64,000 nt of DNA from Candidatus Spongiihabitans sp. (GCA_965261335.1 OZ253450.1:386772-450771); one strand, 5' to 3'. Shown: positions 1-27,485, numbered from the stretch's first letter. Notes: a model not told the origin generated them from the letters alone. Translations and numbers: made by a program.

Positions 1-3000
1 ACAGGGTCGGTAATTCCCGCCAAATCTGTCGCAGTAATGTCTTTACAATCGATTCCGCTGCGGGTTCTGCGGATTGTTAATACGAGTTGCTCCCTAACCG
101 CTTCGGTGCGTGAACAGACGTTTCCTATGGCAGTATCGGCAATGCTGACTGTGAAGGTTTGTTTAGCCGGCGAACTTTCCCCGTCTGTGGCAGTAACGGT
201 GATGGTGGCCGTTCCTATGGCTATTGGCGTAATGGTTACGACGCTATCCGCCACTGTAACAGTGGCGATGTCATCATCACTGGATTGTGCGGTATAGGTC
301 AACGTGTCGTTAGGATCGTTAAATTTACTCGCCACATCCACATCGCGAAGACTACCCTGTGCCACGAGGTTGGTAATATCGGCAATCGTACCTGTAATTG
401 TGGTGGGTTTTTTGACAATGACCATAAAAGTTTGTGTAGCCGTTTGTCCGGCTGTATCGGTAGCCGTTATGGTGATGGTTGTAGCCCCTCCTACGGCTAA
501 TGATGGCGTAACCGTAACTTCACCACTATCATCAACCCCAACGGTGGCGATGGTTTCATCACTGGATTGTGCAGTATAGGTCAAGGTGTCGCCGGGGTCG
601 CTAAAATTACCCGCCACATTCACGGTTTGAGCATCACCACTTGCCATGAGGTCAGTAATATCGGCAATCGTATCTACGGTTGTTGGCACTGCGGCGTTAA
701 TCGCGGTTCCTGTTGGAAGGGTTATTGCGTTTCGTGGGACATCAGCAAACAGGCTCGCAGGGAGCGAAGCAGGCAGTGGGTTTCTACTTAAATTAAGGGT
801 TGTCAAACTGGTTAAGCCCGAGAAAAGCCCAGCAGGCAAGGTGGAAAGTTGGTTGTCGTTTAAGTTCAGTGTTTGTAAGGCACTCAGTCCAGAGAATATA
901 TCGGCGGGCAAGGTGGTTAAGCTGTTATCTTGTAATTGAAGTTCTGTCAGCCCGGTTAAGCCCGCAAAATCACCATTCTTTAGTGGGCTGCTTAGGGCGA
1001 AGGCAGGAGTCCCGCCATCAAAATTTAACGCGGTAATGCTTCCCAAATCTGTCGTAGTAATCTCATCACAAGCGTCTTGATCACTCACTGCCGCGATGAT
1101 TCTTGCCTGAACGTCTGCAGAACGTGAGCAAACTTTGGCTGGATTGGTAGCTGCCACCGTGAAAGTCTGCGTAGCCGTTTGATCCGCTGTATCGGTGGCA
1201 GTGACGGTTATCTCTACGTCCCCTATGGCTACTGGGGTAATGGTTACTACGCTACCGCCCACCATAACGGTGGCGATGGCATCATTACTGGATTCAACGG
1301 TAAAGGTCAACGTGTCTATATCGCTAAAGTAGTCCGCCATATCCACCTGAAGAGGACTACTCATTGCCGCGAGATCAATATCGGCAAGCGCGGTTACAAT
1401 GGCGGGGGGTTGGTTGGTAACGGTTACCACAAAAGTCTCCGTAACCGCTTTATCCGCGCTATCGATGGCAGTAACGGTGATGGTTGTACGCCCGACAGCG
1501 ATGGGTGTAATGGTCACTACACTACCGCTGACCGTAACGGTGGCGGTGTCGTCATTACTAGACATGACTGTAAAGGTTAAAGTCTCGTTTTCGAAACCGT
1601 TAAAGTTACCCGCTACATTCAGCTCACGAGGACTATCCATTGCCACGAGGTCAATATCATTAAGTGCGTTCACAATGGTTGGGGCTGGATTGGTAACGGT
1701 TACCACAAAAGCCTGTGTAACCATTTGACCGATGGTGTCTTCGGCAGTGATGGTGATGGTTGCACTGCCTGCAGCGTTTGCCGTGATGGTGACTGTGCTA
1801 CCCACAACTTCAACGGTAGCGGTGGGAGTGTTACTGGATTCAGTGGTAAAGGTCAACATGTTGTCTGGCTCGCTATCGCTAAAATAACCAGATACATCCA
1901 CCGTGCGAATACTGCTCTGCGCCACAAGGTTATCAATATCCTCAATCGAGTTTACGACTGTGAGCAAACGAACGATGGTTACTCTAATTTCCTGTGTGTA
2001 GGTCGATACGCCGTCCGATACGGTAACTAGAACCCAATATCCTTGGTCTCCTCCACTTGAAATAATATTACCTTGCGAGTCTCTTGGGTTTTTATAATCG
2101 GGAATATACTCGTCTTGGAAGCTTAATTCTCCTGCGTTATTTATCTCAAACAACGCGGCATCGCTATTTGAAAGCGTATAGTTCAAAGTATTCGCGTCCA
2201 TATCGGTCGCGGTGATGGTGGTTACTGCTTTTGTGTTTTCGGGGAGTGTTATTTCATATGGAGACTCACCATTGTTAGAGCTAATCTCGGGTCTATGATT
2301 GGCGACAAGGGTCAAATCGTGCTGATTGTTTGTTCCAAATGAGCCAGTAGCCGCTATAGTAATGTTGTATGAATATTTATCAGTGGGCGGTGCATCGTTT
2401 ATGCTCAGGACACCCGTTGACGTTAGGGTAAACAGACCGACATCTACTCCGCCGACAAGCGTATAGCTCGGGTTTTGACCGCTTAAGGCACTATTCTGAG
2501 CCGTGAAAGTGGTTACTTCGGCTCCTGCTTCAAGTGCCGGGGACACGGATAAATCCCCAGTAATATACCAAGCACCTAGGTTCTGAATAAAATCAGATGC
2601 ACCATCAAGCATATTACTCATATTCGTTACACCGCGGACATCCCAACGGCTAATGTCTTGGTTAAAGTCAGTGGCACCCGAAAACATATTATCCATATCC
2701 GTTACCTTCCTAACATCCCAACGGCTTATGTCTTTGTTAAAGGCAGTGGCATCACGAAACATATACGCCATATTGGTCACATTGCTGACATCCCAATCAC
2801 CAATATCTCCGTCAAAGTCGGTAGCATATTCAAACAGCGTGCCCATACGATCAACATTGCTGACATCCCAATCGCCAATGTCTTGATTAAAGCTTTCAGC
2901 ATACCTAAACATACCCCACATATCTGTTACCCGAGACAAATCAGGTTGGTCGGTTGCGTCTCCTATAAGGTTGGTTGCTCCAGCAAAAGCCAGTCCCATT

Positions 3001-6000
3001 GAAGTCCATTGCTGATTTCCCCATTGGTTAATGGCGATGATACTGTTGGAATTAGTATTGCCATTCCCCGCATCAAAATAAATACGCGGGAAGTCGCCAC
3101 TAATACGGACGGTATGAGTCCCTGTATCGGCGTAAGTATGCGTGGCATTGGCGGTATAGGTCGTTGTATCTATGCCACCATCACCCCAATTTACGTTGTA
3201 ATTATAGCCACTGTCTGTTGTTGGAATGGTGATGGTCAGACCTCCTGGTACGCTCCAAGTGGTCACGAAGTCATCCAGACTCCCAGCAGGCATCTCACCT
3301 GCCCCACCATTGACGGTGATGGTGATGGTTCTACTATCCGTACCACCGCTATTAGTGGCGGTGATGAGGTAGGTGGTTAAAGGTGCAATCGCCGTTGGTG
3401 TGCCTGAAATGGTGCCAGTGGCGGTGCTAAATGACAGTCCATTACCAATGGCTGGGGCGATGCCATAGCTGACAACATTACCACCGCCACTTGAGCTGAT
3501 AGTTATAGGCTGGATAGCAGTGCCCACGGTGGCAACCAGCGTATTGGTGCTGATACTGATAATCGGGGTGGCTACGGGTGGAGTTGGTGCCGCATTGGTG
3601 ATGGTCAATGTGCGGGAATTATTCTCTCCATACCCCCCCGTTGATGTTATATCTAACGTATATGAAGGTGAACTCAGTGCTTGAGCTACGCTTAGAGACC
3701 CATCACTCAGGCTAAATAAATCCGCACCATCTCCGACAAGCGTATAACTGGGAGTTTGTCCGTTAAGTACATTGTTTTGAGCGGTGATGCTTCCTATCAC
3801 AGCATTTATCCCAGCCGTACTACCAACCGTGAACGTTAGCGTTTCTGGTAATGGGTCATCTGACGACAATTCCGCATCGGTAACATACCAAGCACCTAAG
3901 TTTTGGCTAAAGTCATCGGCACTAGCAAACATCCACGTCATATTGCTCACCTTCCTAACATCCCAACCACCGATGTCTTGGTTAAAGGCTCCAGCCTCTC
4001 TAAACATAAACTCCATACTGGTTACATCGCTGACATCCCAATCGCCTATGTCTTTGTTAAAGGCTCCAGCGTCTCTAAACATATTTTTCATATTCGTTAC
4101 ATTGCTGACATCCCAATTACCAATGTCTTGGTTAAAGGCTCTAGCATGCTGAAACATCTCACTCATATCCGTTACCTGAGACAAATCAGGTTTGTCGCTG
4201 GCTGTTCCTGCGAGTGTATCAGCCCCCTTAAAAGCACCTGCCATTGAAGTCCATTGACGACCCGCTCCCCATTGTTTGATGGCAACGATGGTGGATGAGC
4301 CATTGTCTGATCTGGTGCTAGGATAATAAATCCGCGGGAAGGTGCCGCTAATGCGGATGTCATAATCGCCTGCGTCGGCGTAAGTATGCGTGGCACCGCC
4401 TGTATGTACATCGGTGTCACTCACGTTATCGCCCCAATCAACCGTGTAATTATACGTTTCGGTAGAGAATGTTGGAATGGTGATTGTTGGATGGGTGGAT
4501 ACTATTTCCCAAGTGGTCACGAAGTCATCCAGACTCCCAGCAGGTATCTCACCTGCCCCACCATTGACGGCGATGGCTATTGTCGCAGTAGCCGTACCAC
4601 CGCTATTAGTAGCGGTGATGGTGTAGGTGGTTAAAGTTGCAATCGCCGTTGGTGTGCCTGAAATGGTGCCAGTGGCTGTGTCAAGTGTCAGTCCATCGGA
4701 GAGTGTTGGATTGATTGCAAAGAGAGCAACCACACCACCGCCACTTGAACTGATGGTTATCGCATCAATGGGACTGCCCACGGTGGCAACCAGCGTATTG
4801 GTGCTGATACTGATACTCGGGGCTAATTCAACGATTGTTACTCTAATTTCCTGTGTGCGGGTCGATACGCCATCCGATACAGAAACTAGAACGCGATATT
4901 CTTGGTCGGCGTTTTGGTCAACCACCCCATCTGAGTTTCTTGGGTTTTCATAATCTGGAATATAGGCATCCTTGAAACTTAATACGCCTGAATCCGTTAT
5001 CTCAAACAACGCGACATCGCTATTTGAAAGCGTATAGTTCAAAGTATTCGCGTCCATATCCGTCGCGGTGATGGTGGTTACCGGCTGTGTATTTTCGGGG
5101 AGCGTTATTGCATATGGAGACTCACCATTGTTAGAGCTAATCTCGGGTCTATGATTGGCGACAAGGGTCAAATCGTGCTGATTGTTTGTTCCAAATGAGC
5201 CAGAGCCAGTAGCCGCTATAGTAATGTTGTATGAAGTTTTATCAGCGGACGGTGCATCGTTTATGCTCAGGACTCCCGTTGACGTTAGGGTAAACAGACC
5301 GCCATCTACTCCGCCGGCAAGCGTATAGCTCGGGCTTTGACCGCTTAAAACACTATTCTGAGCCGTGAAAGTGGTTACTTCGTCTCCTGCTTCAAGTGCC
5401 GGGGACACGGATAAATCCCCAGTAATATACCAAGCACCTAGGTTTTGGTTAAAGGCAGTGGCATCACGAAACATATACGTCATACTCCTTACACCGCGGA
5501 CATCCCAACGGCTTATGTCTTGGTTAAAGGCTCTGGCATCACGAAACATGCTCGACATATTGGTCACATTGCTGACATCCCAATCACCAATGTCTTGGTT
5601 AAAGGCTGCGGCATTAGAAAACATCCCTTGCATATTATTTACACTGCTGACATCCCAATCACCAATGTCTTGGTCAAAGGCAATGGCATTCTGAAACATC
5701 GAATGCATACTATTTACACTACTGACATCCCAACGGCTTATGTCTTGGTTAAAGGCAGTGGCACGAGCAAACATCCACGTCATATTGGTCACATTGCTGA
5801 CATCCCAATCACCAATGTCTCGGCTAAAGGCCATCGCATTGTAGATACTCCCTAACATAAAACTCATATTAGTTACACCACTGACATCCCAATCACCAAT
5901 GTTTTGGTCAAAGGCTTCGGCATTCTGAAACATCGAGTTCATCTTGGTTACCCGAGATAAATCAGGCGTATCGCTGGCTTGTCCAGCAAGGTTGGTCGCA

Positions 6001-9000
6001 CCCCTAAAAGCACCATTCATTGAAGTCCATTGCCCTGTTCCCCATTGGTCAATGGCGATGATACTGTTGGAATTTTGGTTGCCGTTGTTATCGTGGGTAT
6101 TAAAATAAATACGCGGGAAACTGCCGCTGATACGGACTTCATAATCACCTGCGACGGCATAAGTGTGCGTGGCGTTTTCGGTCTGGTTCGTGCTGGTGCT
6201 GGTGGGACTATCACCCCAATTAACGGTGTAATGATACGTTTCGGTAGCGTATGTTGGAATGGTGATGGTCTGATCTGCGGTTACCTGCCAAGTGGTCACA
6301 AAGTCGTCTGTTGCCAATGCTTCATCACTAACGGTAATGGTGAATCCTTTAGAATAATTAAGTGTGCCATCATTCACTTGGATTCTGATGCTATAACTTG
6401 ATTTTCCTGCGGCGGGTGTTGCGAGTATTCTTAAACTGGTGCCGTCAATTATGAACAATGCGTTGTCTGTATCACCATTTCCAGCGGCTAATGTATATGT
6501 ATATGTTTCATCCGCATCCGCATCGATAACAGATAATAAACCAACTCGCTGGTGAGCCGTTGCACTGCGCACCACTGCTGTTGAAGAAAGCCCAATGTCG
6601 GTCGGGGCTGTTTCGCTGACTGGCGTGATTCTTACGATAATTTCTTGTGTATCAAAAGATATTCCATCCGATACAGAGACTAGAACGCGATATTCTTGGT
6701 CTGCGTTTTGGTCAACCACCCCATCTGAGTTTATTGGGTTTTCATAATCTGGAACACGGTCGGCTTTGAATTTTAATGTTCTTGAGTTTCCTGTTCCAGT
6801 TATCTCAAATAAATCAGAATCATACCTAGAAATAGAATAGGTCAAAATATCATTGGTATCCCCATCCGTAGCGGTGATGGTGGTGACTTCTCGTGTGTTT
6901 TCGGGGAGTGTAATTGCATATGTAGAAGCACCACCATTGGGGGCGGTAATCTGCGTAATATGATTGGTGACAAGCGTCAAATCGTGCTGATTGTTTGTTC
7001 CAAATGAGCCAATAGCCGCTATGGTAATGTTGTATGAAGTTTTTCCAGCGGGCGGTACGTCGTTTATGCTCAGGACACCTGCTGAAGTTAGGGCAAACAA
7101 ATTGGCATCACCTCCGGCGACAAGCGTATAGTTCGGATTTTGACCGCTTAAGGCACTATTCTGAGCCGTGAAAGTGGTTACTTCGTCTCCTGCTTCAAGT
7201 GCCGGGGACACGGATAAATCCCCAGTGATATACCAAGCACCTAGGTTTTGACTAAAAACAGGAGATGTGCCAAACATATTATTCATATTCGTTACACTGC
7301 GGACATCCCAACCGCTTATGTCTTTGTTAAAGACAGCGCCATTAGCAAACATCCACTGCATATCGGTCACATTGCTGACATCCCAACCGCTTATGTCTTT
7401 GTTAAATACGTCAGTATATTCAAACAGCGTGCCCATATCGGTCACATTGCTGACATTCCAATTGCCAATGTCTTGATTGAATTTTTCAGCATACCTAAAC
7501 ATACTCCGCATATTTGTTACCCGAGACAAATCAGGTTGGTCGAGTGTTGTTTGTCCTGCTAGGTTGGTTGCTCCACTAAAAGCCAGTTCCATTGAAGTCC
7601 ATTGCTGACTTCCCCATTGGTTAATGGCGATGATACTGTTGGAATTATCATTGCCTTCCCTCGCATTAAAATAAATACGCGGGAAGTCGCCACTAATACG
7701 GACGGTATAAGTCCCTGCATCGGCGTAAGTATGCGTGGCGTTGCCGGTCTGGCTCGTGTCGGTGCTACCATCGCCCCAATTTACCTTGTAACTATAGCCA
7801 CTGCCTGTTGTTGGAATGGTGATGGTCTGACTTGCCGCTACGCTCCAAGTAGTAACAAAATCATCTGTTTCTAATACGTCATCGCTCACTGTAATGGTGA
7901 ATGCCTTAGCGAAATCATTTGTGCCGTCATTAACATTGATTCTAATGCTGTAGCTTGATTTACCTGTGGCAGGTGTTGCGAGTATTCTCAAACTGGTGCC
8001 GTTAATGGTGAACAATAGGTTGTCATCATCACCATTTCCATCGGCTAACGTATATGTATATATTTCACCCGCATCCTCATCGATAACAGATAATAAACCA
8101 ACCCGCTGGCGAGCCGTTGCACTACGCACCACTGCTGTTGAAGAAAGCCCAATGTCGGTCGGGGTTGTTTCGTTGACGGGCATGATTGTTACGATAATGG
8201 TTTGCGTATCGGTCGATATTCCATCCGATACAGAGACTAGAACGCGATATTCTTGGTCGGCGTTTTGGTCAACCACCCCGAGTGAGTTTCTTGGGTTTTC
8301 ATAATCTGGAATAAAGTCATCTTTGAAACTTAATGTTCTTGAGTTTCCTGTTCCAGTTATCTCAAACAGTGCCACATCATCATTCGAAAGCGTATAGCTC
8401 AAAGTAGCATTCTCATCTCCATCTGTAGTGGTGATGGTGGTGACCGCCCGGGTATTTTCAGGGAGTGTTATTGCATAGTGAGAAACGCCATTGTTAGAAG
8501 TAATCTCGGGTCTATGATTGGCGACAAGGGTTAAAGATCGGTAGTAGATCCGTGTGTCGCTAGCGCTCTTCTTAATCACATTACCACTAACTGATATGCG
8601 GATATTATATTCATTTTTTGTAATTTCTGGACTTCCCTTTATGCTCAACACGCCTGTGCTCGTTATTGTAAAGAGATCATCATCAGTGCCACCATCAAGT
8701 CCATAGGTCGGGTTTTGACCGTTTAAGTAACTATTCTGAGCCGTGAATCGGGTGACTTCGTCCCCTGCTTCAAGTGTCGGAGGCACGGACAAATCCCCCG
8801 TAATGTACCAAAGCCCGAAGTTGGCGACAAAAAAACGAAAATTAGTTCCATCAATCATATTCTCCATATTGGTTACATTGCGGACATCCCAAGCACTGAT
8901 GTCATGCGTCATAAATGTGGCATTCTGAAACATATAACTCATGTCTGTAAGATTGCGGGTAACCCAACCGCCGATAGGTTGGTTAAAACCGAAGGCTCTT

Positions 9001-12000
9001 CTAAACATAGCCGACATATTGGTTACATTGCGGGTAACCCAATCGCCAATAGGTTGGTTAAAGATATGATTATAATTAAACATATTGTTCATGTCTGTAA
9101 CCTCGCCTGTATTCCAACCACCGATAGGTTGATTAAAGGAGCTGTGCTGAAACATTCCCGATAAATCGGTTACGCTACTGACATCCCAACCACCGATAGG
9201 TTGGTTAAAGAGTGCGGTATGAGCAAACATATTCGACATATTGGTCACCTTGCTGACATCCCAATCGCCGATGTTTTGGTTAAAGGCATCGGCATTATTA
9301 AACATATTGTTCATGTCGGTTACAGTCGATAAATCAGGTCTATCGTTTGTATCTCCAACCAAGTTACTACAGCCATAGAAGGATTTTTCCATAGAAGTCC
9401 AGCGTCCATTGCCCCATTGCTTGATGGCAATGATCTTGTCCTTGTCGCCTTCGTTATTAAAATAAATGCGCGGGAAGGTGCCACTGATACGGACTTCATA
9501 ATCATCTGCATCAGCGTAAGTATGCACGGCATTGCCTGTATAAGTAGCCGTGTCTGCTGCTTCACCACTGCCCCAATTCACGGTGTAATGATACGTTTCG
9601 GTAGCGTATGTCGGAATGGTGATGCTCTGACCTGCCGTTACCCGCCAAGTGGTAACAAAATCATCTGTTGCCAATGCGTCCTCGCTAACGGTAATGGTGA
9701 ATGTATTAGAGAAATCATTTTCACCATCATTTACATTGATTCTGATGCTGTAGCTTGATTTGCCGGCGGCAGGTGTGTCCTTTATTCTTAAACTGGTGCC
9801 GTCAATTATGAACGCTTCGTTATCTGCATCACCCACTCCAGTTATCAATGTGTATGTGTATTCGTCACCCGTCTCTGTATCAGTATTAGACAAGAACCCA
9901 ATCCGGGTGTTGGCGACTGCATTGCGAACCACTGCTTCTGAAGAAAGCATAATATTGGTCGGGGCTGGGTTCTCACCAAACATAAAGTCTCGGTGATTGT
10001 TTGTTCCAAATAAAAAATTCGCCATCGCTGATACGCTAATATCATATTTAGTTTTTGTGGGGTCGGGTGCTAGGTTTATGGTCAACACACCTGCTGGGGT
10101 TAGGGTAAAGAGATCGGCATCAGTGCCAGAAAGAGAATAAACCGAGCTGTGACTTCTTAAATGAGCATTCTGAGCCATGAAAGTGGTTACTGTACCACCT
10201 GCTTCAAGAGTGGGGGAAATAACCAAGTCAGGCACAGCAATATACCAAAGCCCAAGATTTTGATTAAAGGCGGTGGCACCAGCAAACATCGAATTCATGA
10301 ACGTTGCATTTATATTCCTCACGTCCCAACGGCTGATGTCTTGGTTAAAGGCTACGGCATTCTGAAACATCGTTTTCATATCTCCTACGAGACTCACATC
10401 CCAATCACCAATGTCTTGGTTAAAGGCAGTGGCAAAACTAAACATACTCTTCATATTCGTTACACTGCTGACATCCCACTTGCCGATGGCTTGGTTAAAG
10501 GACCGGGCATTCCGAAACATGTGCGACATATTCGTTACACTGCTGACATCCCACTTGCCGATGGCTTGGTTAAAGTACTCGGTACTCTGAAACATGTACG
10601 ACATATTCGTTACACTGCTGACATCCCAATCACTAATGTCTTGATTAAAAGCCATCCTATTGTAGGCACTCCCTAACATAGACATCATATTGGTAACACT
10701 GCTGACATCCCAATTACCAATGTTTTGGTTAAAGGCTTGGGCATTATCAAACATACCGTTCATATCGGTTAGCCGAGATAAATCAGGCGTATCGCTGGCT
10801 TGTCCAGCAAGGTTGGTCGCACCCCTAAAAGCACCATTCATTGAAGTCCATTGCCCTGTTCCCCATTGGTCAATGGCGATGATACTGTTGGAATTTTGGT
10901 TGCCGTTGCTATTGAAGTTATTAAAATAAATACGCGGGAAACTGCCGCTGATACGGACGCTATAAGTCCCTGAATCGGCGTAAGCATGCGTGGCGTTGCC
11001 GGTCTCGCTCGTGGCGTTGCTATCATCGCCCCAATTTACGGCGTAATCATAGCCATCACCTGTTGTTGGAATGGTAATGGTCTGACCTGCCGTTACCTGC
11101 CAAGTGGTCACGAAGTCGTCTGTTGCCAATGCTTCATCACTAACGGTAATGGTGAATGTTTTGGAGTAACCAAGTACGCCATCATTCCCTCGGATTCGGA
11201 TTCTGATGCTGTAGATTGTCCTTTCTGCGGTGGGTGTTGCGTTTATTCTTAAACTGCTACCGTCAATGGTGAATGCGTCATTGTCATCATCACCATTTCC
11301 AGCGGCTAACGTATATGTATATATTTCACCCGCATCCGCATCGATAACAGATAATAAACCAACCCGCTGGCGAGCCATTGCACTACGCACCACTGCTGTT
11401 GAAGAAAGCCCAATGTCGGTCGGGTCTGTTTCGTTGACTGGCGTGATTCTTACGATAATTTCTTGTGTATCAAAAGATGTTCCATCCGATACAGTAACCA
11501 GAACACGATATTCTTGGTCGGCGTTTTGGTCAACTACCCCATCTGAGTTTCTTGGGTTTTCATAATCTGGAATAAAGTCATCTTTGAATCTTAATGTTCT
11601 TGAGTTTCCTGTCCCTGTTATCTCAAACAGTGCGGCATCGTTATTTGAAAGCGTATAGGTCAAAGTATCATTGGTATCCCCATCCGTAGCGGTGAGGGTG
11701 GTCACTTCTCGTATGTTTTCGGGGAGCGTTATTGCATATGGAGACTCACCATTGTTAGAGCTAATCTCGGGTCTATGATTGGCGACAAGGGTCAAATCGT
11801 GCTGATTGTTTGTTCCAAATGAGCCAGTAGCCGCTATGGTAATGTTGTATGAAGTTTTATCAGCGGGCGGTGCATCGTTTATGCTCAGGACACCCGTTGA
11901 CGTTAGGGTAAACAGACCGACATCTACTCCGCCGACAAGCGTATAGCTCGGGTTTTGACCGCTTAAGGCACTATTCTGAGCCGTAAACCGAGTTACTTCG

Positions 12001-14126
12001 GCTCCTGCTTCAAGTGCCGGGGACACGGATAAATCCCCAGTGATATACCAAGCACCTAGGTTTTGACTAAAAGCAGGTGTGTTGTTACCAAGCATATTAC
12101 TCATATTCGTTACACCGCGGACATCCCAACGGCTAATGTCTTGGTTAAAGGCAGTGGCACTAGCAAACATCCACTCCATATTGGTCACATTGCTGACATC
12201 CCAATCACCAATATCTTGGTTAAAGTCGTCAGTATGTTCAAACAGCGTGCCCATACGCTCAACATTGCTGACATCCCAATCGCCGATGTCTTGATTGAAT
12301 TTTTCAGCATGCCTAAACATACCCCACATATCTGTTACCCGAGACAAATCAGGTCGGTCGGTTGTTGTTTGTCCTGCTAGGTTGGTTGCTCCACTAAAAG
12401 CCTGTTCCATTGAAGTCCATTGCTGATTTCCCCATTGGTCAATGGCGATGATACTGTTGGAATTATCATTGCCATTCCCCGCATTAAAATAAATACGCGG
12501 GAAGTCGCCACTAATACGGACGGTATGAGTCCCTGTCACGGTGTAAGCATGCGTGGCATTGCCAGTATAGGTCGTTGTATCTATGCCATCATCACCCCAA
12601 TTTACGGTGTAACTATAGCCACTGCCTGTTGTTGGAATGGTGATCGTCTGACCGTCCGTTACGCTCCAAGTGGTCACGAAATCACCCGAGTCACCTAACG
12701 GACTCCCAGCAGGCATCTCGCCTGCTCCACCATTAACAGTGATGGTGATGGTTCCACTATCCGTACCACCACTATTAGTGGCGGTGATGAAGTAGGTGGT
12801 TAAAGTTGCAATCGCCGTTGGTGTGCCTGAAATGGTGCCAGTGGCTGTGCTAAATGACAGTCCAGCGGGAAGTGTTGGATCGATGCTGTAGCTCTCAACA
12901 TTACCACCGCCACTTGAGCTGATAGTTATATCCGCGATAGCAGTGCCCACGGTGGCAACCAGCGTATTGGGGCTGATACTGATACTCGGGGCGGCTATGG
13001 GGGCTGTTATTGCCGCATTGATGATGGTCAATGTGCGGGAATTATTCTCTCCATACCCCCCCGTTGATGTTATACCTAACGTATATGAAGGTGAACTCAG
13101 TGCTTGAGCTACGCTTAGAGACCCACCAATCAGGCTAAATAAATCCGCACCATCTCCGACAAGCGCATAACTGGGAGTTTGTCCGTTAAGTTCATTGTTT
13201 TGAGCGGTGATGCTTCCTATCACAGCACCTATCCCAGCCGTACTACCAACCGTGAACGTTAGCGTTTCTGGTAATGGGTCATCTGACGGCAATTCCGCAT
13301 CGGTAATATACCAAGCGCCTAGGTTTTGGATAAAGCCAAAGCCAGGGGCAGATGAAGAGGCTAAAAAAAACATCTCGCTCATATCGATAACCTTCCTAAC
13401 ATCCCAACCACCAATGTCTTGGTTAAAGACTCTAGCACCACTAAACATAAACGCCATACTGGTCACATCGCTGACATCCCAATTGCCTATGTCTTGGTTA
13501 AAGGCGGTAGCGTCTCTAAACATCTCACTCATATCCGTTACCCGAGACAAATCAGGTTTGTCGCTGGCTGTTCCTGCGAGTGCATAAGCCCCCTTAAAAG
13601 CACCCGCCATTGAAGTCCATTGACGACCCGCTCCCCATTGTTTGATGGCAACGATGGTGGATGAGCCATTGTCTGAGGAGGTGCTAGGATAATAAATCCG
13701 TGGGAAGGTGCCGCTAATGCGGATGTCATAATCGCCTGCGTCGGCGTAAGTATGCGTGGCACCGCCTGTATGTACATCGGTGTCACTCACGTTATCGCCC
13801 CAATCAACCGTGTAATTATACGTTTCGGTAGAGAATGTTGGAATGGTGATTGTTGAATGGGTGGATACTATTTTCCAAGTGGTAACGAAGTCATTCAAGC
13901 CTTGTGCATTAGCCAGCTGTGCGACAAACAATAGTGCAAAGAAAGTGGCGACGAATAGGCACTTCAGAGGTGCGGACAAAATACCACAACGATTTGATGT
14001 GGCTGTCCGTGCTGTTTTGAGTTGCGTTGCAATTGAAATCATCGCCCTACCCCATAAGCCGAACGCGGATTGTGGGGTGGTAACTATATGATTATTAATG
14101 GTTTTTATGATGAACGATGATTTCAT
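1..14126 (-). CDS. Giant modular surface/adhesin-like protein; 5' end complete, 3' end beyond the left window edge (>=4708 codons in window). Signal peptide, 8 iterated modules (TTW..WGD..THxY..FPRIYF beta-sandwich + DUF285/26-residue repeats + cadherin-like/He_PIG-like domains), then Ig-like domains and LRR blocks
   Basis: Hand translation of the minus strand from ATG 14126-14124 gives [13 protein letters not shown]...[59 protein letters not shown]. This has a hydrophobic core plus an AxA-type cleavage site; an alternative ATG lies at 14042. The frame (first codon base = 2 mod 3) was translated by hand over 14126-~10500, 9340-6280, 1142-900 and 299-240 without a stop. The motif D-F-V-T-T-W recurs in this same frame at 13892, 12683, 11117, 9662, 7862, 6305, 4526 and 3272. 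The ORF track lists no minus-strand ORF in this frame across 14 kb, as expected if the ORF has no stop in the window. Repeats of the type [20 protein letters not shown] match the DUF285/TIGR02167-type surface repeat. Segments such as [15 protein letters not shown]...[30 protein letters not shown] are cadherin-like. Confidence 0.85.
2250..4530. repeat. Copy A of the ~2.2-kb intragenic duplication (giant-gene modules 7-8)
   Basis: See copy B. Shadow ORF pairs are near-identical: 3784..4152 with 13207..13587, and 3009..3380 with 12420..12698. Confidence 0.85.
11730..13895. repeat. Copy B of a ~2.2-kb intragenic long-range duplication (giant-gene modules 1-2)
   Basis: Long stretches are identical or near-identical to 2250-4530. 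For example, 11881-11940 is identical to 2401-2460, and 11941-12060 is near-identical to 2461-2580. Offsets run from ~9480 down to ~9367 nt, implying a ~23-codon indel inside the DUF285 block. Shadow ORFs 13538..13786 and 4172..4420 differ at only a few residues. Confidence 0.85.
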
Positions 14127-14213
14127 TTGGAATATTCTCTTGATTGAAGTATTCGTGAGGCTGATGGGTTGAATTCACCGCCCTCACTCGACAGCGTTAC
14201 TGTAGCACAACTA

Positions 14214-14857
14214 ATTGAAAATTGAAAATTGAGAAGCAACCTAGTCCGTCATTCCTGCGGAAGCAGGAATCCAGTAAAATAAATATTCTTATCTAATTGA
14301 AAATTGAAAATTGAAAATTGAAAATTGAGAAGCAACCTAGTCCGTCATTCCTGCGGAAGCAGGAATCCAGTAAAATAAATATTCTTATCTAATTGAAAAT
14401 TGAAAATTGAAAATTGAGAAGCAACCTAGTCCGTCATTCCTGCGGAAGCAGGAATCCAGTAAAATAAATATTCTTATCTAATTGAAAATTGAAAATTGAA
14501 AATTGAAAATTGAAAATTGAAAATTGAAAATTGAGAAGCAACCTAGTCCGTCATTCCTGCGGAAGCAGGAATCCAGTAAAATAAATATTCTTATCTAATT
14601 GAAAATTGAGAAGCAACCTAGTCCGTCATTCCTGCGGAAGCAGGAATCCAGTAAAATAAATATTCTTATCTAATTGAAAATTGAAAATTGAAAATTGAAA
14701 ATTGAGAAGCAACCTAGTCCGTCATTCCTGCGGAAGCAGGAATCCAGTAAAATAAATATTCTTATCTAATTGAAAATTGAAAATTGAAAATTGAGAAGCA
14801 ACCTAGTCCGTCATTCCTGCGGAAGCAGGAATCCAGTAAAATAAATATTCTTATCCA
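14214..14857. repeat. Nested tandem repeat array: 7 x [ (ATTGAAA)n + identical 68-bp hairpin-containing core ], n = 2,4,3,7,1,4,3
   Basis: The core ATTGAGAAGCAACCTAGTCCGTCATTCCTGCGGAAGCAGGAATCCAGTAAAATAAATATTCTTATCTA starts at 14228, 14324, 14413, 14530, 14605, 14701 and 14790. The only mismatch is at 14856. Heptamer tracts start at 14214, 14296, 14392, 14481, 14598, 14673 and 14769. Unit lengths are 82, 96, 89, 117, 75, 96 and 89 bp, i.e. 68+7n. Confidence 0.95.
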
Positions 14858-16477: not shown

Positions 16478-17398
16478 ATGTCAAGCAAAACTACAATGTC
16501 GATTGAAAACGGCGCCACTAAGGAAATAAATGGTGTCAGCCATATCTTTTTTGATGATTATTGGATTCGTTATTATAAACCGCCAAAAGAGACCTCTTTC
16601 GAAAAAAAGAAACTGCTGGACGCACTAACCCGTAGAACATTCCATCATACTGAACGCGGCATTAACACGCCCGGGGAAAGGTTAGACGAAGTACGCTCCG
16701 CATATGAAAAAGAAATCGATCCTGCTCGAAAACGTGTCAATGCGGCTATGCTGGCGGGCGCATTATTCAATCGTGCCACCGATATATTCACGACCATCGT
16801 GAATCTTGAAGAACGTGGTATTGAGATGACTCAAGATAATGGGCTTATGCTTGAATGCTCAATCTGTTTCTCTGAAGCCCTGTCATTATCCGGCAATGTC
16901 AGGCATTACAGTGGCGAAGAAGGTGTCGATGAGCTATGGGGTGAGCCGGGAAAGGTGTTCACTATGTCCATCGCAGATTATTATTGTAGCCGCTACCGTA
17001 AAATCGCACAGGCGATGCGTGAAATTGATCGAGTCGGCGAAATCATTCAATCTACGTTTTGTTGTCTGCACTGGTTTTCACAAGCCACCCCCTTGGTAGA
17101 AGATTTCATCGCCATCGCTAAATGTGAATGCGAAATCTTGCGTAGCGATTCGAACTATCTAACGGTATGGCCAGAATTTGTTGCCGATGGGGAAAAAATT
17201 ATCAACTTCCGTGCGATTATCCCAGAACAAGCCAGCACTGATCTGGAAAGACATATCAAACGTGGTACCGCCTTGTTACGTTCAGGAAAAGACCTCATCG
17301 CTTGGATTGCCAACCTCCGCGTACCGATGCCCACAAGCACGACAGAATACCTAACAAAATGCACTGCTTACCGAAAAGCGACCCAAGAATTCGTATAG
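16478..17398 (+). CDS. Hypothetical protein (306 aa), no recognised motif
   Basis: Long ORF that fills the gap between the flanking genes on the same strand. I could identify no domain motif. Several Cys residues but no obvious metal-binding pattern. Confidence 0.6.
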   Translation: MSSKTTMSIENGATKEINGVSHIFFDDYWIRYYKPPKETSFEKKKLLDALTRRTFHHTERGINTPGERLDEVRSAYEKEIDPARKRVNAAMLAGALFNRATDIFTTIVNLEERGIEMTQDNGLMLECSICFSEALSLSGNVRHYSGEEGVDELWGEPGKVFTMSIADYYCSRYRKIAQAMREIDRVGEIIQSTFCCLHWFSQATPLVEDFIAIAKCECEILRSDSNYLTVWPEFVADGEKIINFRAIIPEQASTDLERHIKRGTALLRSGKDLIAWIANLRVPMPTSTTEYLTKCTAYRKATQEFV

Positions 17399-24960: not shown

Positions 24961-25279
24961 CAGAGAGCTGCTTGGGGAAGTCTCTTGATACCCAACACAG
25001 TGCGCGGTGCCTCATCATCCCGAAGGTGGTGAATATCATCCAAGTGAAAACTGCCTTCATGCTGCATCAGGATGAGGGTCTTGATGAATTCAGAGGGCAG
25101 GTACCTCGATTACTTTTTAGTCGGGGAAGTGTTTGTCGATTCGCCCAGAAAGGTTCATGTAATCCATTAAGGGTGTCCATTACTTTATCAGTAACCAATA
25201 AACCGGCACGATCCGTGAGTAAATCGTTCGTTGTATCGAGTTTGTAAGGTAGCATAGTCATCAGCCTTGAGTTGTACAC
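24961..25279 (-). pseudogene. IS1380-family-like DDE transposase, N-terminal remnant (frameshifted, truncated)
   Basis: Minus-strand ORF 25067..25279 reads ...YKLDTTNDLLTDRAGLLVTDKVMDTLNGL...LPRLKSNRG. A second frame continues as YLPSEFIKTLILMQHEGSFHLDDIHHLRDDEAPRTVLGIKRLPQAA. Together these fit the conserved N-terminal ~110 aa of IS1380-type transposases (LTSxAGL...; ..G....D...L..D). No DDE catalytic region follows. The remnant abuts the plsC stop. Confidence 0.5.
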
Positions 25280-25413
25280 CCATTGGAGGATGGAAGGTTT
25301 TGCTGTTAACCATTATAGAGACAGGACTCCCTACGTTTTAGGGGTTTTTATCTGTGGATTGGGAGCCAGAAATGTTGCATCTAAAGTAAAAACAGATTAT
25401 GTTCCGTTTGCGT

Positions 25414-25500
25414 GCCGGGGTGGCGAAATTGGTAGACGCGCCAGATTCAAAATCTGGTTGGGGCAACTCAGTGTCGGTTCGAGTCCGACCCTCGGTACCA
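25414..25500 (+). tRNA. tRNA-Leu (anticodon CAA)
   Basis: GCCGGGGTGGCGAAATTGGTAGACGCGCCAGATTCAAAATCTGG...GTCGGTTCGAGTCCGACCCTCGGTACCA. It has a long variable arm, the anticodon loop TTCAAAA, the T-loop GGTTCGAGTCC, and an encoded CCA. It is close to E. coli tRNA-Leu(CAA). Confidence 0.9.
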
Positions 25501-25620
25501 GTGTTTATTATGGTGGTAAAAGTGTTCATAAAAACGCCATATTCATATTTCTGACTATGGCGAATTATCACAAGAGGCGTTAAACTATGTTGCCAGAAAG
25601 TTAAACAATAACGTAACAAA

Positions 25621-26094
25621 ATGAACAAAATGAACAAAATCCCAGTAGAAAACCCGCCCCAACACGACCTCAAAACCCACATCGGCGAATCCGTCATCAT
25701 TGTTGGCGATGTCAACGGTAAAGAAGATGTTGTCATTGATGGTAGCGTAGAGGGCGACATCAATTTTCGTGATAACAGTGTCATCATCAGCAAAAGTGGG
25801 CGAATCAAAGCGAGTATAACCGCCAGAGATATTGTCGTTATCGGGGATGTAAAAGGTGCGCTACACGCAAGTGAACAGGTCACGATAGAGGCTTCGGGCA
25901 AGGTGATTGGCAATATTCATGCGCCGCGAGTTTCTTTGAATGATGGCTGTCAGTTCAAAGGAGCCGTTGATATGGATGAGATAGGCACTTCATCAGATAA
26001 CCAAGCATCAAAGATTCGACTATCCAAAACCCCCTTTTCTCGTGAGCACCCCCTCAAAGTAGCCAGAAAGCCCAACCAGTCTGGTCAATCATAA
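25621..26094 (+). CDS. Bactofilin family (polymer-forming cytoskeletal) protein
   Basis: 157 aa. Repetitive beta-helix pattern typical of bactofilin/DUF583: VIIVGDVNGKEDVVIDGSVEGDI...ITARDIVVIGDVKG...VTIEASGKVIGNIHAPRVSLNDGCQFKG. Confidence 0.8.
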   Translation: MNKMNKIPVENPPQHDLKTHIGESVIIVGDVNGKEDVVIDGSVEGDINFRDNSVIISKSGRIKASITARDIVVIGDVKGALHASEQVTIEASGKVIGNIHAPRVSLNDGCQFKGAVDMDEIGTSSDNQASKIRLSKTPFSREHPLKVARKPNQSGQS

Positions 26095-26135
26095 ATGCTA
26101 CAACCCCACACTTATGTAATAAACCGTTTTCTAGC

Positions 26136-27485
26136 CTAGTCGTTCACGGTTTGTGCTACGGTTTTCGCAATTTGTTTGGTCAGGGTTTGCACTTGCTCCA
26201 TGTCATTTCCCTCGATCATAACTCGGAATAAGGGTTCCGTTCCGGAAGGACGTAATACAACCCTACCAGTTCGTCCTAAAGTTTCTTCAGCATCTACAAC
26301 GGCATCAAGAATATGTGGATGTTCTGACAATTTTTTGCCATTTGAATTGCCGATTGGGACATTGATCATGTGTTGCGGGTAAACTTCCATTCCGTTCGCT
26401 AATTCGTCAACCGGCTTATCGCTTTCGAGCATCCATTCCAGCACCTCGAGCGCAGCGACAATGCCGTCACCGGTCGTCGTTTTATCTAAGCATATAATAT
26501 GACCAGATGCTTCGCCACCCAAATTCCATTGGTTGTTTGTCAGTGCCTCATGGACATAACGATCACCTACTTGGGTTCGTTGAAACGGGATTAACATTTT
26601 TTCGAGTGCCCGCTCCAATCCCAGATTACTCATCACCGTGCCGACAACGCCACCATTAAGCCGCTTGTTCACTTTTCGATAATCAGCAAGCATATAGAGT
26701 ATCTGATCGCCGTTAATTTCGTTGCCCTTCCGATCAACCAGTAAAACACGGTCAGCATCGCCATCCAGCGCAATGCCTAAATCAGCTTCGGTTTCCTTGA
26801 CATGTTTCTTCAGGGTCGTTAAATCGGTCGAACCACATACTGCATTGATGTTAAACCCATCCGGCTTATCGGCAATAGCAACAACATCCGCACCCAATTC
26901 GGCAAAGACTTTGGGGGCGACATTGTACGCCGCACCATTGGCACAGTCGATAACCAGTTTTATACCCGACAGTGTTTTTGTTTCGTCAAACGTGCTTTTA
27001 CAATGCTCAATATACCGTCCATAGGCATCGGAAAAGCGTTTCGCCTTGCCCATAGCCATCGAACCAACACATCGTAGCGGCTGCCACATCATCTCATCAA
27101 TTTCATTGACCAGATCATCTTGTAGTTTTGTGCCTTCGGATGAAAATATTTTTATCCCGTTGTCGTAGTATGGATTGTGAGAAGCACTGATGACCACACC
27201 AGCACAGGCTCTAGCAGTGCGGGTAAGATAGGCAATCCCCGGTGAGGGCATCGGACCAAGCAAAGAGACATTCACTCCTGCGGCAGAAAATCCTGCTTCT
27301 AAAGCTGATTCCAACATATATCCCGAAACACGGGTGTCTTTACCGATTAACACCGTATCACCGCGCCCAACTTTGGAGAATACACAACCAGCTGCCCAGC
27401 CCAGTTTTAATATAGTGTCTGGCGTAATCGGCTGTTTACCGACCTCACCTCTTATCCCATCCGTGCCAAACAGTGAGTCCCTCAT
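26136..27485 (-). CDS. glmM: Phosphoglucosamine mutase
   Basis: 449 aa. N-terminal FGTDGIRG, the active-site serine loop ISASHNPYYDNGIK, and typical position after ftsH. Confidence 0.95.
   Translation of the reverse strand: MRDSLFGTDGIRGEVGKQPITPDTILKLGWAAGCVFSKVGRGDTVLIGKDTRVSGYMLESALEAGFSAAGVNVSLLGPMPSPGIAYLTRTARACAGVVISASHNPYYDNGIKIFSSEGTKLQDDLVNEIDEMMWQPLRCVGSMAMGKAKRFSDAYGRYIEHCKSTFDETKTLSGIKLVIDCANGAAYNVAPKVFAELGADVVAIADKPDGFNINAVCGSTDLTTLKKHVKETEADLGIALDGDADRVLLVDRKGNEINGDQILYMLADYRKVNKRLNGGVVGTVMSNLGLERALEKMLIPFQRTQVGDRYVHEALTNNQWNLGGEASGHIICLDKTTTGDGIVAALEVLEWMLESDKPVDELANGMEVYPQHMINVPIGNSNGKKLSEHPHILDAVVDAEETLGRTGRVVLRPSGTEPLFRVMIEGNDMEQVQTLTKQIAKTVAQTVND

Follow-up and report, generated by a model that had tools for sequence, protein, structure and literature searches.

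The window analysed here, a 64,000-nucleotide stretch of DNA from Candidatus Spongiihabitans sp. (GCA_965261335.1 OZ253450.1:386772-450771), carries at its left edge the 5′ part of a giant gene predicted to encode a surface protein. On the minus strand a single frame runs from an ATG at 14126 to position 3, with 0 stops in 4,708 translated codons. The remaining five frames hold 154–415 stops each over the same 14.1 kb; ~250 stops are expected from base composition, and the probability of meeting none is ~1e-112. An earlier reading of the sequence alone (hereafter the sequence-only reading) had proposed this frame as an open reading frame (ORF) of at least 4708 codons and ascribed its absence from the ORF track to the want of a stop in the window. 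Both proposals held up: the stop codon lies beyond the left edge of the window, and the ORF listing reports only short ORFs here (e.g., 10161–10676) because ORFs running off the end of the source are omitted. The frame is coding over its whole length, since matches to DUF285, He_PIG, LRR_8, Big_2, PKD, and Big_9 and to the PARCEL family TIGR02167 are spread along it. The in-window product has a mass of 503 kDa and a pI of 4.1, and is very acidic and rich in Thr, Ser, Asp, and Asn. The best explanation is that the window contains the 5′ three-quarters of one intact gene for a protein of ~6,000–6,300 residues (~0.65 MDa).

Independent assemblies support this length. Two contigs were reached via the neighboring aminotransferase gene, L001 (ERZ26693861 ctg138346_457x; 1.62 Mb, its 457x coverage being read from the contig name) and L002 (12.7 kb, ending inside the giant gene). 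In L001 the same gene is called as a single 6,276-residue product. Aligned with the window, L001 runs collinear for 9.3 kb (97.9% identity) and L002 for 5.9 kb (95.3% identity), and only 15 gap columns occur in these alignments. Flanking housekeeping genes are 99.7% (L001) and 98.1% (L002) identical to those of the window, so the giant gene diverges faster than its flanks. Because both contigs are collinear with the window and the frame is unbroken in L001, strain comparison indicates that the gene is real and is intact in at least two strains. The sequence-only reading had itself raised the possibility of a collapsed or chimeric assembly, in which smaller paralogous repeat genes were joined into one long ORF. 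The gene is indeed highly repetitive, with internal copies 72–93% identical across hundreds of residues, and some stretches are 100% identical between paralogues of its genome; such repeats and stretches can mislead assemblers. We nevertheless regard an artefact of this kind as highly improbable, given the collinearity of L001 (~457x by name) and L002, the single 6,276-codon frame kept in L001, and the fact that random mis-joins would not leave 4,708 codons free of stops.

Differences between the strains are clustered. When the window is compared with L001, 154/188 substitutions lie inside 12 patches totalling 1,078 nt, and in several patches the L001 allele is closer to a paralogous repeat of the window gene than to its allelic site (e.g., 81/82 vs. 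60/82 positions). Since the clustered strain differences match paralogous repeats, the pattern indicates gene conversion.

The in-window protein is built of eight modules followed by a distinct tail (Table 1). The modules begin at residues 80, 483, 1005, 1490, 2090, 2609, 3202, and 3620, and share a plan in which a beta-sandwich cap ('DFVTTW...YNYTVDWGD') is followed by a DUF285/PARCEL block and then by cadherin-like, He_PIG, or PKD-like domains. DUF285 (PF03382) reaches 1293 bits (cut-off 25) in 14 stretches and the NCBIfam PARCEL model TIGR02167 reaches 368 bits (cut-off 30) in 15 stretches. He_PIG, LRR_8, Big_2, PKD, and Big_9 also exceed their Pfam cut-offs, and cadherin matches are weaker. 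All of the profile matches foreseen by the sequence-only reading (DUF285/TIGR02167, He_PIG, Big_2, leucine-rich repeats [LRRs], and cadherin, the last weakly) were thus found. Tandem Repeats Finder reports period-75 arrays in the DUF285 blocks, corresponding to a 25-residue unit, and we counted 31 units of the FNQxIGxWDV type. On a larger scale, residues 74–900 are duplicated at residues 3196–4050 with 72–93% identity. The antisense ORF at 10161–10676 (+; 171 aa) falls within the module 3 DUF285 block; we rejected it as a gene, as it represents repeat DNA read backwards, its peptide being itself repetitive and without similarity to the sense protein.

Structural comparison points to extracellular folds. 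An AlphaFold model of module 1 is usable over residues 1–300 (pLDDT ~70–85) and poor beyond, and shows beta-sandwiches and an LRR-like solenoid. In a fold search, the domain following DUF285 in this model matches the extracellular cadherin domains of protocadherins and cadherins (E = 1e-4). No PDB relative of the DUF285 module was found by sequence, none of the matches in the databases searched bears an informative protein name, and the architecture as a whole remains unmatched, as the sequence-only reading had suspected when it could name no characterised protein with this domain grammar. The LRR of the tail is Cys-capped, with LRR_8 at 774–953, and a second LRR cap begins at the window edge (3–116). 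Its best PDB sequence matches are LRRTM, IGFALS, LRRC15, variable lymphocyte receptors, LGR4/5, and Toll, and by these matches the tail LRR is of the animal extracellular type. The mature in-window part (>4,600 residues) contains only 5 cysteines, four of which form two close pairs.

Table 1. Features of the giant gene and of its upstream region. Coordinates are window positions; residues are numbered from the ATG at 14126.
Feature	Residues	Coordinates	Strand	Content	Basis
Giant gene, 5′ 14.1 kb (4,708 codons)		1..14126	-	coding sequence runs on past left window edge	open frame, domains, orthologue
Extended Sec signal peptide (predicted)	1-74	13905..14126	-		hydropathy, start codons, homologue conservation
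Module 1	75-476	12699..13904	-	'DFVTTW' cap, DUF285/PARCEL 13227-13616, cadherin-like, He_PIG	profile matches, model and fold search
Module 2	477-998	11133..12698	-	cap, DUF285 12027-12416, cadherin-like, PKD-like	
Module 3	999-1483	9678..11132	-	cap, double-length DUF285 10245-10847, spacer	
Module 4	1484-2083	7878..9677	-	cap, DUF285 8808-9398, cadherin-like, PKD	
Module 5	2084-2602	6321..7877	-	cap, DUF285 7233-7598, cadherin-like	
Module 6	2603-3195	4542..6320	-	cap, DUF285 5430-6026, cadherin-like, He_PIG	
Module 7	3196-3613	3288..4541	-	near-copy of module 1 (72-93% identity), DUF285 3888-4250	
Module 8	3614-4030	2037..3287	-	cap, DUF285 2568-3005, spacer	
In-window tail	4031-4708	3..2036	-	3 Big_2-like, LRR, 2 Big_9/Big_2-like, start of second LRR cap	
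Leader/promoter-proximal segment (86 nt)		14127..14212	-	identical in three strains	
Composite tandem array		14213..14855	.	from giant gene to divergent aminotransferase gene	repeat and strain comparison

The N-terminus has the layout of a Sec signal peptide. Inspection and hydropathy place an MKSS start, a long n-region, a hydrophobic h-region, and cleavage after ANA (ANA/QG), so that the long N-region, hydrophobic core, and AxA site proposed in the sequence-only reading are all present. A second in-frame ATG occurs at 14042. The n-region ahead of it is conserved at the protein level in three relatives described below (P0145, P0146, and the paralogue P0455), and because of this conservation ATG 14126 appears the likelier start.

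How such a protein might leave the cell was assessed from its relatives. An exhaustive homologue search of representatives gave, at E ≤ 1e-30, 19,129 proteins, with lengths of 2,000–7,466 residues frequent among them. The closest matches, P0145 (5,302 aa) and P0146 (5,640 aa), have the signal peptide in common with the window protein and modules up to 92% identical to it. Together with four relatives of the LRR/Ig tail that we inspected (P0149, P0152, P0171, and P0204), they end without exception (6/6) in a conserved ~460-residue linker plus beta-domain ('...RILLE..IRF'), the terminal residue of these barrel blocks being Phe. In P0145 the C-terminal block is recognized as the Autotransporter beta-domain PF03797 (51.5 bits, cut-off 26). 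A further relative, P0455 (6,080 aa), lies on the same 2.77 Mb contig as the window. Its signal peptide is nearly identical and its C-terminal barrel the same, which brings the full-length relatives ending in a barrel to 7/7 inspected. P0455 also has stretches 100% identical to residues 1301–1600 of the window protein; it was considered as this very gene and rejected, being a paralogue. A homologue broken by insertion sequences (IS) on contig L010 shows the order LRR/Ig, then a cadherin/He_PIG array, then the barrel. Relatives of the tail likewise run from LRR/Ig through a He_PIG array to the barrel. Because the gene combines a Sec signal and a Cys-poor passenger with barrel-ended relatives, among them a same-genome paralogue, the best-supported export model is that of a type Va autotransporter, which we consider a strong probability. 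Cys-poor passengers are typical of autotransporters.

Several observations weigh against this model. The C-terminal ~1,370–1,570 residues lie outside the window, a tblastn search with the beta-domain gave no match within it, and the autotransporter assignment therefore rests on paralogues and relatives. Among the best 150 representatives, a PF03797-type barrel is present in only 11; ~74 of the others end within DUF285 repeats and look truncated or fragmentary, and further ones end in CHU_C tails of the type IX secretion system (T9SS) or in other classes. Because these C-terminal classes differ, DUF285 giants are thus joined to different export modules by lineage and not bound to one system. 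The passenger is also not a beta-helix, Pfam giving only DUF285, Ig-like, cadherin-like, and LRR domains; a beta-helix is typical, though not universal, for type Va passengers. No autochaperone or pertactin-type Pfam match occurs in the 4,708 residues, and neither the extended signal peptide region family ESPR nor any other Pfam family matches over the N-terminal extension. Finally, export of ~5,800 residues of independently folding Ig and LRR domains through a type Va barrel would be unusual, and a passenger of this length lies, to our knowledge, at the extreme of known type Va sizes.

Alternative routes fare less well than the autotransporter model. Two-partner secretion as a TpsA protein (type Vb) was rejected, as there is no PF05860 TPS domain (residues 1–170 have no Pfam match) and no TpsB-like upstream neighbor; an inverse autotransporter (type Ve, as in intimin/invasin) was rejected, as the signal peptide is followed directly by a DUF285 module and not by an N-terminal barrel. 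A giant adhesin of the repeats-in-toxin (RTX) type, exported by a type I secretion system (T1SS) of ABC transporter, membrane fusion protein (MFP), and TolC through a C-terminal signal, would resemble SiiE, LapA, and the Marinomonas ice-binding adhesin (MpIBP). Size, acidity, and tandem Ig-like and cadherin-like repeats recall these proteins, and the C-terminus, where such a signal would sit, is outside the window. T1SS substrates lack a Sec signal peptide, however, and the one seen here is conserved; the 4,708 residues contain no RTX- or T1SS-related Pfam or NCBIfam match; no ABC or MFP genes occur on the visible side, where the neighbors are an aminotransferase, an epimerase, PGI, and glyQS; and the close relatives and the same-genome paralogue all end in barrels. 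We therefore consider type I secretion very unlikely.

Somewhat less remote, though still improbable, is that the protein is exported by Sec but anchored or released in another way (another sorting tag, type II secretion, or retention in the periplasm or outer membrane), so that the ending of its relatives does not apply to it. DUF285 giants bear several C-terminal modules across taxa, modules are freely shuffled among the relatives, and the LRR/Big_2 tail here is unlike the tails of P0455 and P0145. But the full-length relatives that do have an LRR/Big_2 tail (P0149, P0152, P0171, and P0204) all end in barrels, and the ~1,570 residues left over in L001 accommodate more repeats plus the ~460-residue linker and barrel. 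Under the favored type Va model, Sec would carry the giant protein across the inner membrane. In the unseen C-terminus, further Ig-like repeats would lead through a helical linker to an autotransporter beta-barrel of 12 strands; this barrel, with the barrel assembly machinery (BAM), would pass the ~5,800-residue passenger to the surface, after which the domain string would project from the cell.

The giant gene does not stand alone. Module order is permuted among the window protein, P0145, P0148, and P0455. The gene is a member of a multigene family in its genome that diversifies by gene conversion and module shuffling. Two further candidates for this gene were examined. The pair P0302 and P0324, encoded on the same contig as the window, was rejected, being a frameshifted remnant at another locus; P0169, on the L001 contig, was rejected as this gene and is an IS-truncated paralogue 0.87 Mb distant. 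The window genome holds a frameshifted barrel remnant (573 + 374 aa; L011 4164–6960) beside an rve (integrase) fragment, and in the close strain IS1595/DDE insertions leave a paralogue of 2,162 aa (L013 10001–16489). In co-occurring relatives, IS1595/DDE transposases break up the homologous giant genes at L009 2540–14713 (pieces of 765/1032/1570 aa) and at L010 10001–23882 (pieces of 1386/1731/255/541/228 aa); these two split genes, from the same metagenome, are probably decaying copies.

The organism itself points to a sponge setting for this family. Its RpoB is 83% identical to that of Candidatus Spongiihabitans sp. and 73% identical to that of an Arenicellales metagenome-assembled genome (MAG), most matches being unnamed metagenome proteins. 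By RpoB identity, the organism is a gammaproteobacterium, and among named organisms the sponge symbiont Ca. Spongiihabitans stands closest to it, a genus that NCBI taxonomy assigns to the Arenicellales, family Ca. Poriferihabitaceae. Further homologue matches derive from sponge-type MAGs. MAGs of this kind are described in sponge genome notes from metaMDBG assemblies of HiFi reads, a naming style that the contigs here follow. In addition, the LRR/Ig module is 57–60% identical to at least 21 paralogues in a MAG of Ekhidna sp. (Bacteroidota), several with T9SS tails, and L001 and the Ekhidna contig share one ENA sample of origin. Sponge symbionts have been proposed to be enriched in eukaryote-like cadherin and LRR domains, to exchange them laterally, and to use them in attachment or in avoiding phagocytosis (PMC10947273, PMC7848895); the likeness to the Ekhidna paralogues fits such a proposed exchange of domains (PMC10947273).

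The Ekhidna contigs offer two further observations. P0100 (L012 8001–10757, an Ekhidna sp. contig from the same ENA sample as L001) is a 918-aa protein with DUF285 and He_PIG domains. Its signal peptide nearly matches that of the window's giant protein, and its neighbors are ordinary Bacteroidota-type genes; the likeness of the leaders suggests a cross-phylum transfer that may have included the leader. Second, a C22 homopolymer lies in the 5′ coding region of Ekhidna LRR-Ig paralogues (MAG CBDHDT010000193.1), between the ATG and the signal peptide, at L003 9879–9900 (out of frame) and L004 9876–9897 (in frame). An N-terminus with poly-Pro and signal peptide is present in only 2/21 called paralogues and the others begin at an internal Met, as would be expected if most copies were phase-OFF; homopolymer length is, however, error-prone in long-read assemblies.

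Upstream of the giant gene lies a repeat array that differs between close strains. It begins 87 nt upstream of the start codon, totals ~640 nt, and consists of (AATTGAA)n tracts alternating with a ~61–68 nt unit that bears an 8-bp hairpin resembling repetitive extragenic palindromes (REP-like; TTCCTGC-GGAA-GCAGGAA), an element confined to the array within the window. Tract lengths are n = 2,4,3,7,1,4,3 in the window, 26,3,.. in L001 (array at 9273–9800), and 13,7,5,..,11 in L002 (array at 6000–6800), and the number of units also differs. All three strains agree in the 86 nt adjoining the ATG and in ~250 nt at the opposite end, and the flanks are 98–99.7% identical. Length variation between close strains, the hallmark of simple sequence repeat (SSR) contingency loci, is thus observed, and the array could place the giant gene, the divergent aminotransferase gene, or both under SSR control. 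Two results do not favor such a role: a scan of the 86 nt adjoining the start codon gave no sigma-70-like promoter, and the presumed 5′ region is no more stable when folded than shuffles of it (z = +0.85). The array core had no match in the JGI metagenomes, and no comparable heptamer array occurs upstream of the L009 and L010 homologues.

Each component of this locus has known counterparts. PARCEL/DUF285 repeat surface proteins, such as the lipoproteins of the Mycoplasma mycoides cluster (NCBIfam Mbov_0838), were described by Roske et al. 2010 (PMC2996958). The giant protein resembles them in its tandem 25-residue (75-nt) repeats, in DUF285 and TIGR02167 scores far over threshold, and in a membrane- or surface-targeting signal, recognized here by inspection and hydropathy. 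It also shares their variable sequence, patchy distribution, IS-associated relatives, and antisense ORF over repeat DNA. Unlike the PARCEL lipoproteins, it arranges eight blocks in a Gram-negative protein of ~6,000 residues, interleaved with cadherin-like and Ig-like domains, and would be held by a barrel in place of a lipoprotein anchor. The dyad symmetry to which PARCELs owe their name was not detected by two tests simpler than the MEME palindrome method of the original PARCEL paper: blastn at word size 7 gave no minus-strand self match in the eight DUF285 blocks, and the per-unit reverse-complement excess was 10.65 vs. 11.18 in codon-shuffled controls.

With type Va autotransporter adhesins the protein shares an unusually long Sec signal peptide and a Cys-poor passenger, and its relatives and same-genome paralogue end as these adhesins do, in an alpha-helical linker and a PF03797 barrel with terminal Phe, an ending predicted here. 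It departs from them in a ~5,800-residue passenger of LRR-like solenoids and Ig/cadherin-like beta-sandwiches. Like the T1SS giants SiiE, LapA, and MpIBP, it is an acidic protein of hundreds of kDa whose tandem Ig-like and cadherin-like domains would carry binding modules well away from the cell; it differs from them in its Sec signal peptide, the lack of RTX in the part seen and of T1SS genes on the visible side, and its barrel-ended relatives. Animal extracellular-type LRRs and cadherin-like spacers in a Spongiihabitans-related organism also recall the eukaryote-like proteins of sponge symbionts, although in the papers found these figure as domain counts.

The upstream array has a partial parallel in Haemophilus influenzae hmw1A/hmw2A, where expression is inversely related to (ATCTTTC)n length (PMC2424069, PMC12721329). 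In both cases a 7-nt repeat of strain-variable copy number precedes the gene for a large secreted adhesin (here a putative one). Unlike hmw1A/hmw2A, however, the present array has several tracts and REP-like hairpin units over 640 nt common to a divergent gene, and no long stabilizing hairpin is predicted; HMW1A is moreover a two-partner (Vb) substrate. A limited literature search found no description of a single autotransporter gene of at least 6,000 residues that combines all these domains with gene conversion and SSRs. What appears to be new is this combination, a probable ~6,000-residue classical autotransporter with a recombining DUF285/cadherin-Ig/LRR passenger and an SSR array upstream, in a sponge-symbiont lineage; the components are each already known, and the giant gene family is uncharacterised.

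Other features of the region were noted in passing. Between the class-III aminotransferase and the NAD-dependent epimerase, a 306-aa ORF (16478–17398, +) without Pfam match has conserved counterparts, called as 300 aa, in L001 and L002. GC skew, near zero over the giant gene, flips from positive to strongly negative at ~26 kb (window ~25000–26500), where plus-strand genes (15–25 kb) meet a minus-strand block of ribosomal-protein, EF-Tu/EF-G, and rpoBC genes, with a tRNA at 25414–25497; the flip could be a replication-related switch or a mere effect of gene orientation. On L011, a 4x-coverage contig that has exact protein sequences in common with the window's genome, biotin carboxylase is present as three short ORFs (9447–10768; 167, 95, and 184 aa), reflecting either pseudogenisation or low-coverage sequencing error.

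What the projected passenger does can be approached through its domain content and the sponge-symbiont context, which together suggest that it would mediate attachment to, or recognition or evasion by, host cells, matrix, or other microbes; we put the chance of this at about even. The label of adhesin-like surface protein given in the sequence-only reading goes beyond direct observation but is reasonable. The protein might instead not be primarily an adhesin, and could act as a variable coat or decoy against phagocytosis, phage, or immune recognition, or in aggregation between bacteria. We see this as a possible but clearly weaker option. Eukaryote-like LRR and cadherin proteins of sponge symbionts have been proposed as phagocytosis modulators (PMC10947273; PMC7848895), and fast mosaic diversification with a variable SSR upstream recalls antigenic and contingency loci; yet binding is the classic role of cadherin, LRR, and Ig-like domains, and the data do not discriminate binding from shielding. 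In either case the hypervariable heptanucleotide array may tune expression of the giant gene. Taken as a whole, the account of an intact giant surface protein exported in this way seems to us probable, with a little less assurance than the type Va model by itself.

A broader hypothesis would join these observations. Sponge-symbiotic Arenicellales may carry a family of 5,000–6,300-residue classical autotransporters whose passengers are, in place of beta-helices, shuffled eukaryote-like cassettes (DUF285-cadherin-He_PIG and LRR-Ig), exchanged with co-resident phyla that use T9SS tails. The family would be diversified by gene conversion within and between paralogues and tuned by SSRs (the heptanucleotide array here, poly-C in the Bacteroidota copies), forming a contingency system for host interaction in a mutualist or commensal. 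We advance this only tentatively.

Beyond the sequence-only reading, the present analysis adds a probable export route, the sponge-symbiont setting, membership in a multigene family, mosaicism through gene conversion, and the hypervariable upstream array. Giant repeat adhesins as such are common, and the function proposed here is read from domain content only. If the export model is true, the protein would be among the largest type Va autotransporters, with a passenger of independently folding Ig-, cadherin-, and LRR-like domains, and would bear on the amount and nature of the cargo that a Va barrel and BAM can export. The close strain represented by L001 is, by its 457x label, the most deeply covered contig seen from its sample. 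The findings also give the 'eukaryote-like protein' signal of sponge microbiomes a gene-level form, that of a putatively surface-exposed, fast-recombining multigene family. Modules common to different phyla within one sample, together with candidate phase-variable control, may offer handles on how symbionts are recognized or tolerated by an early-branching animal.

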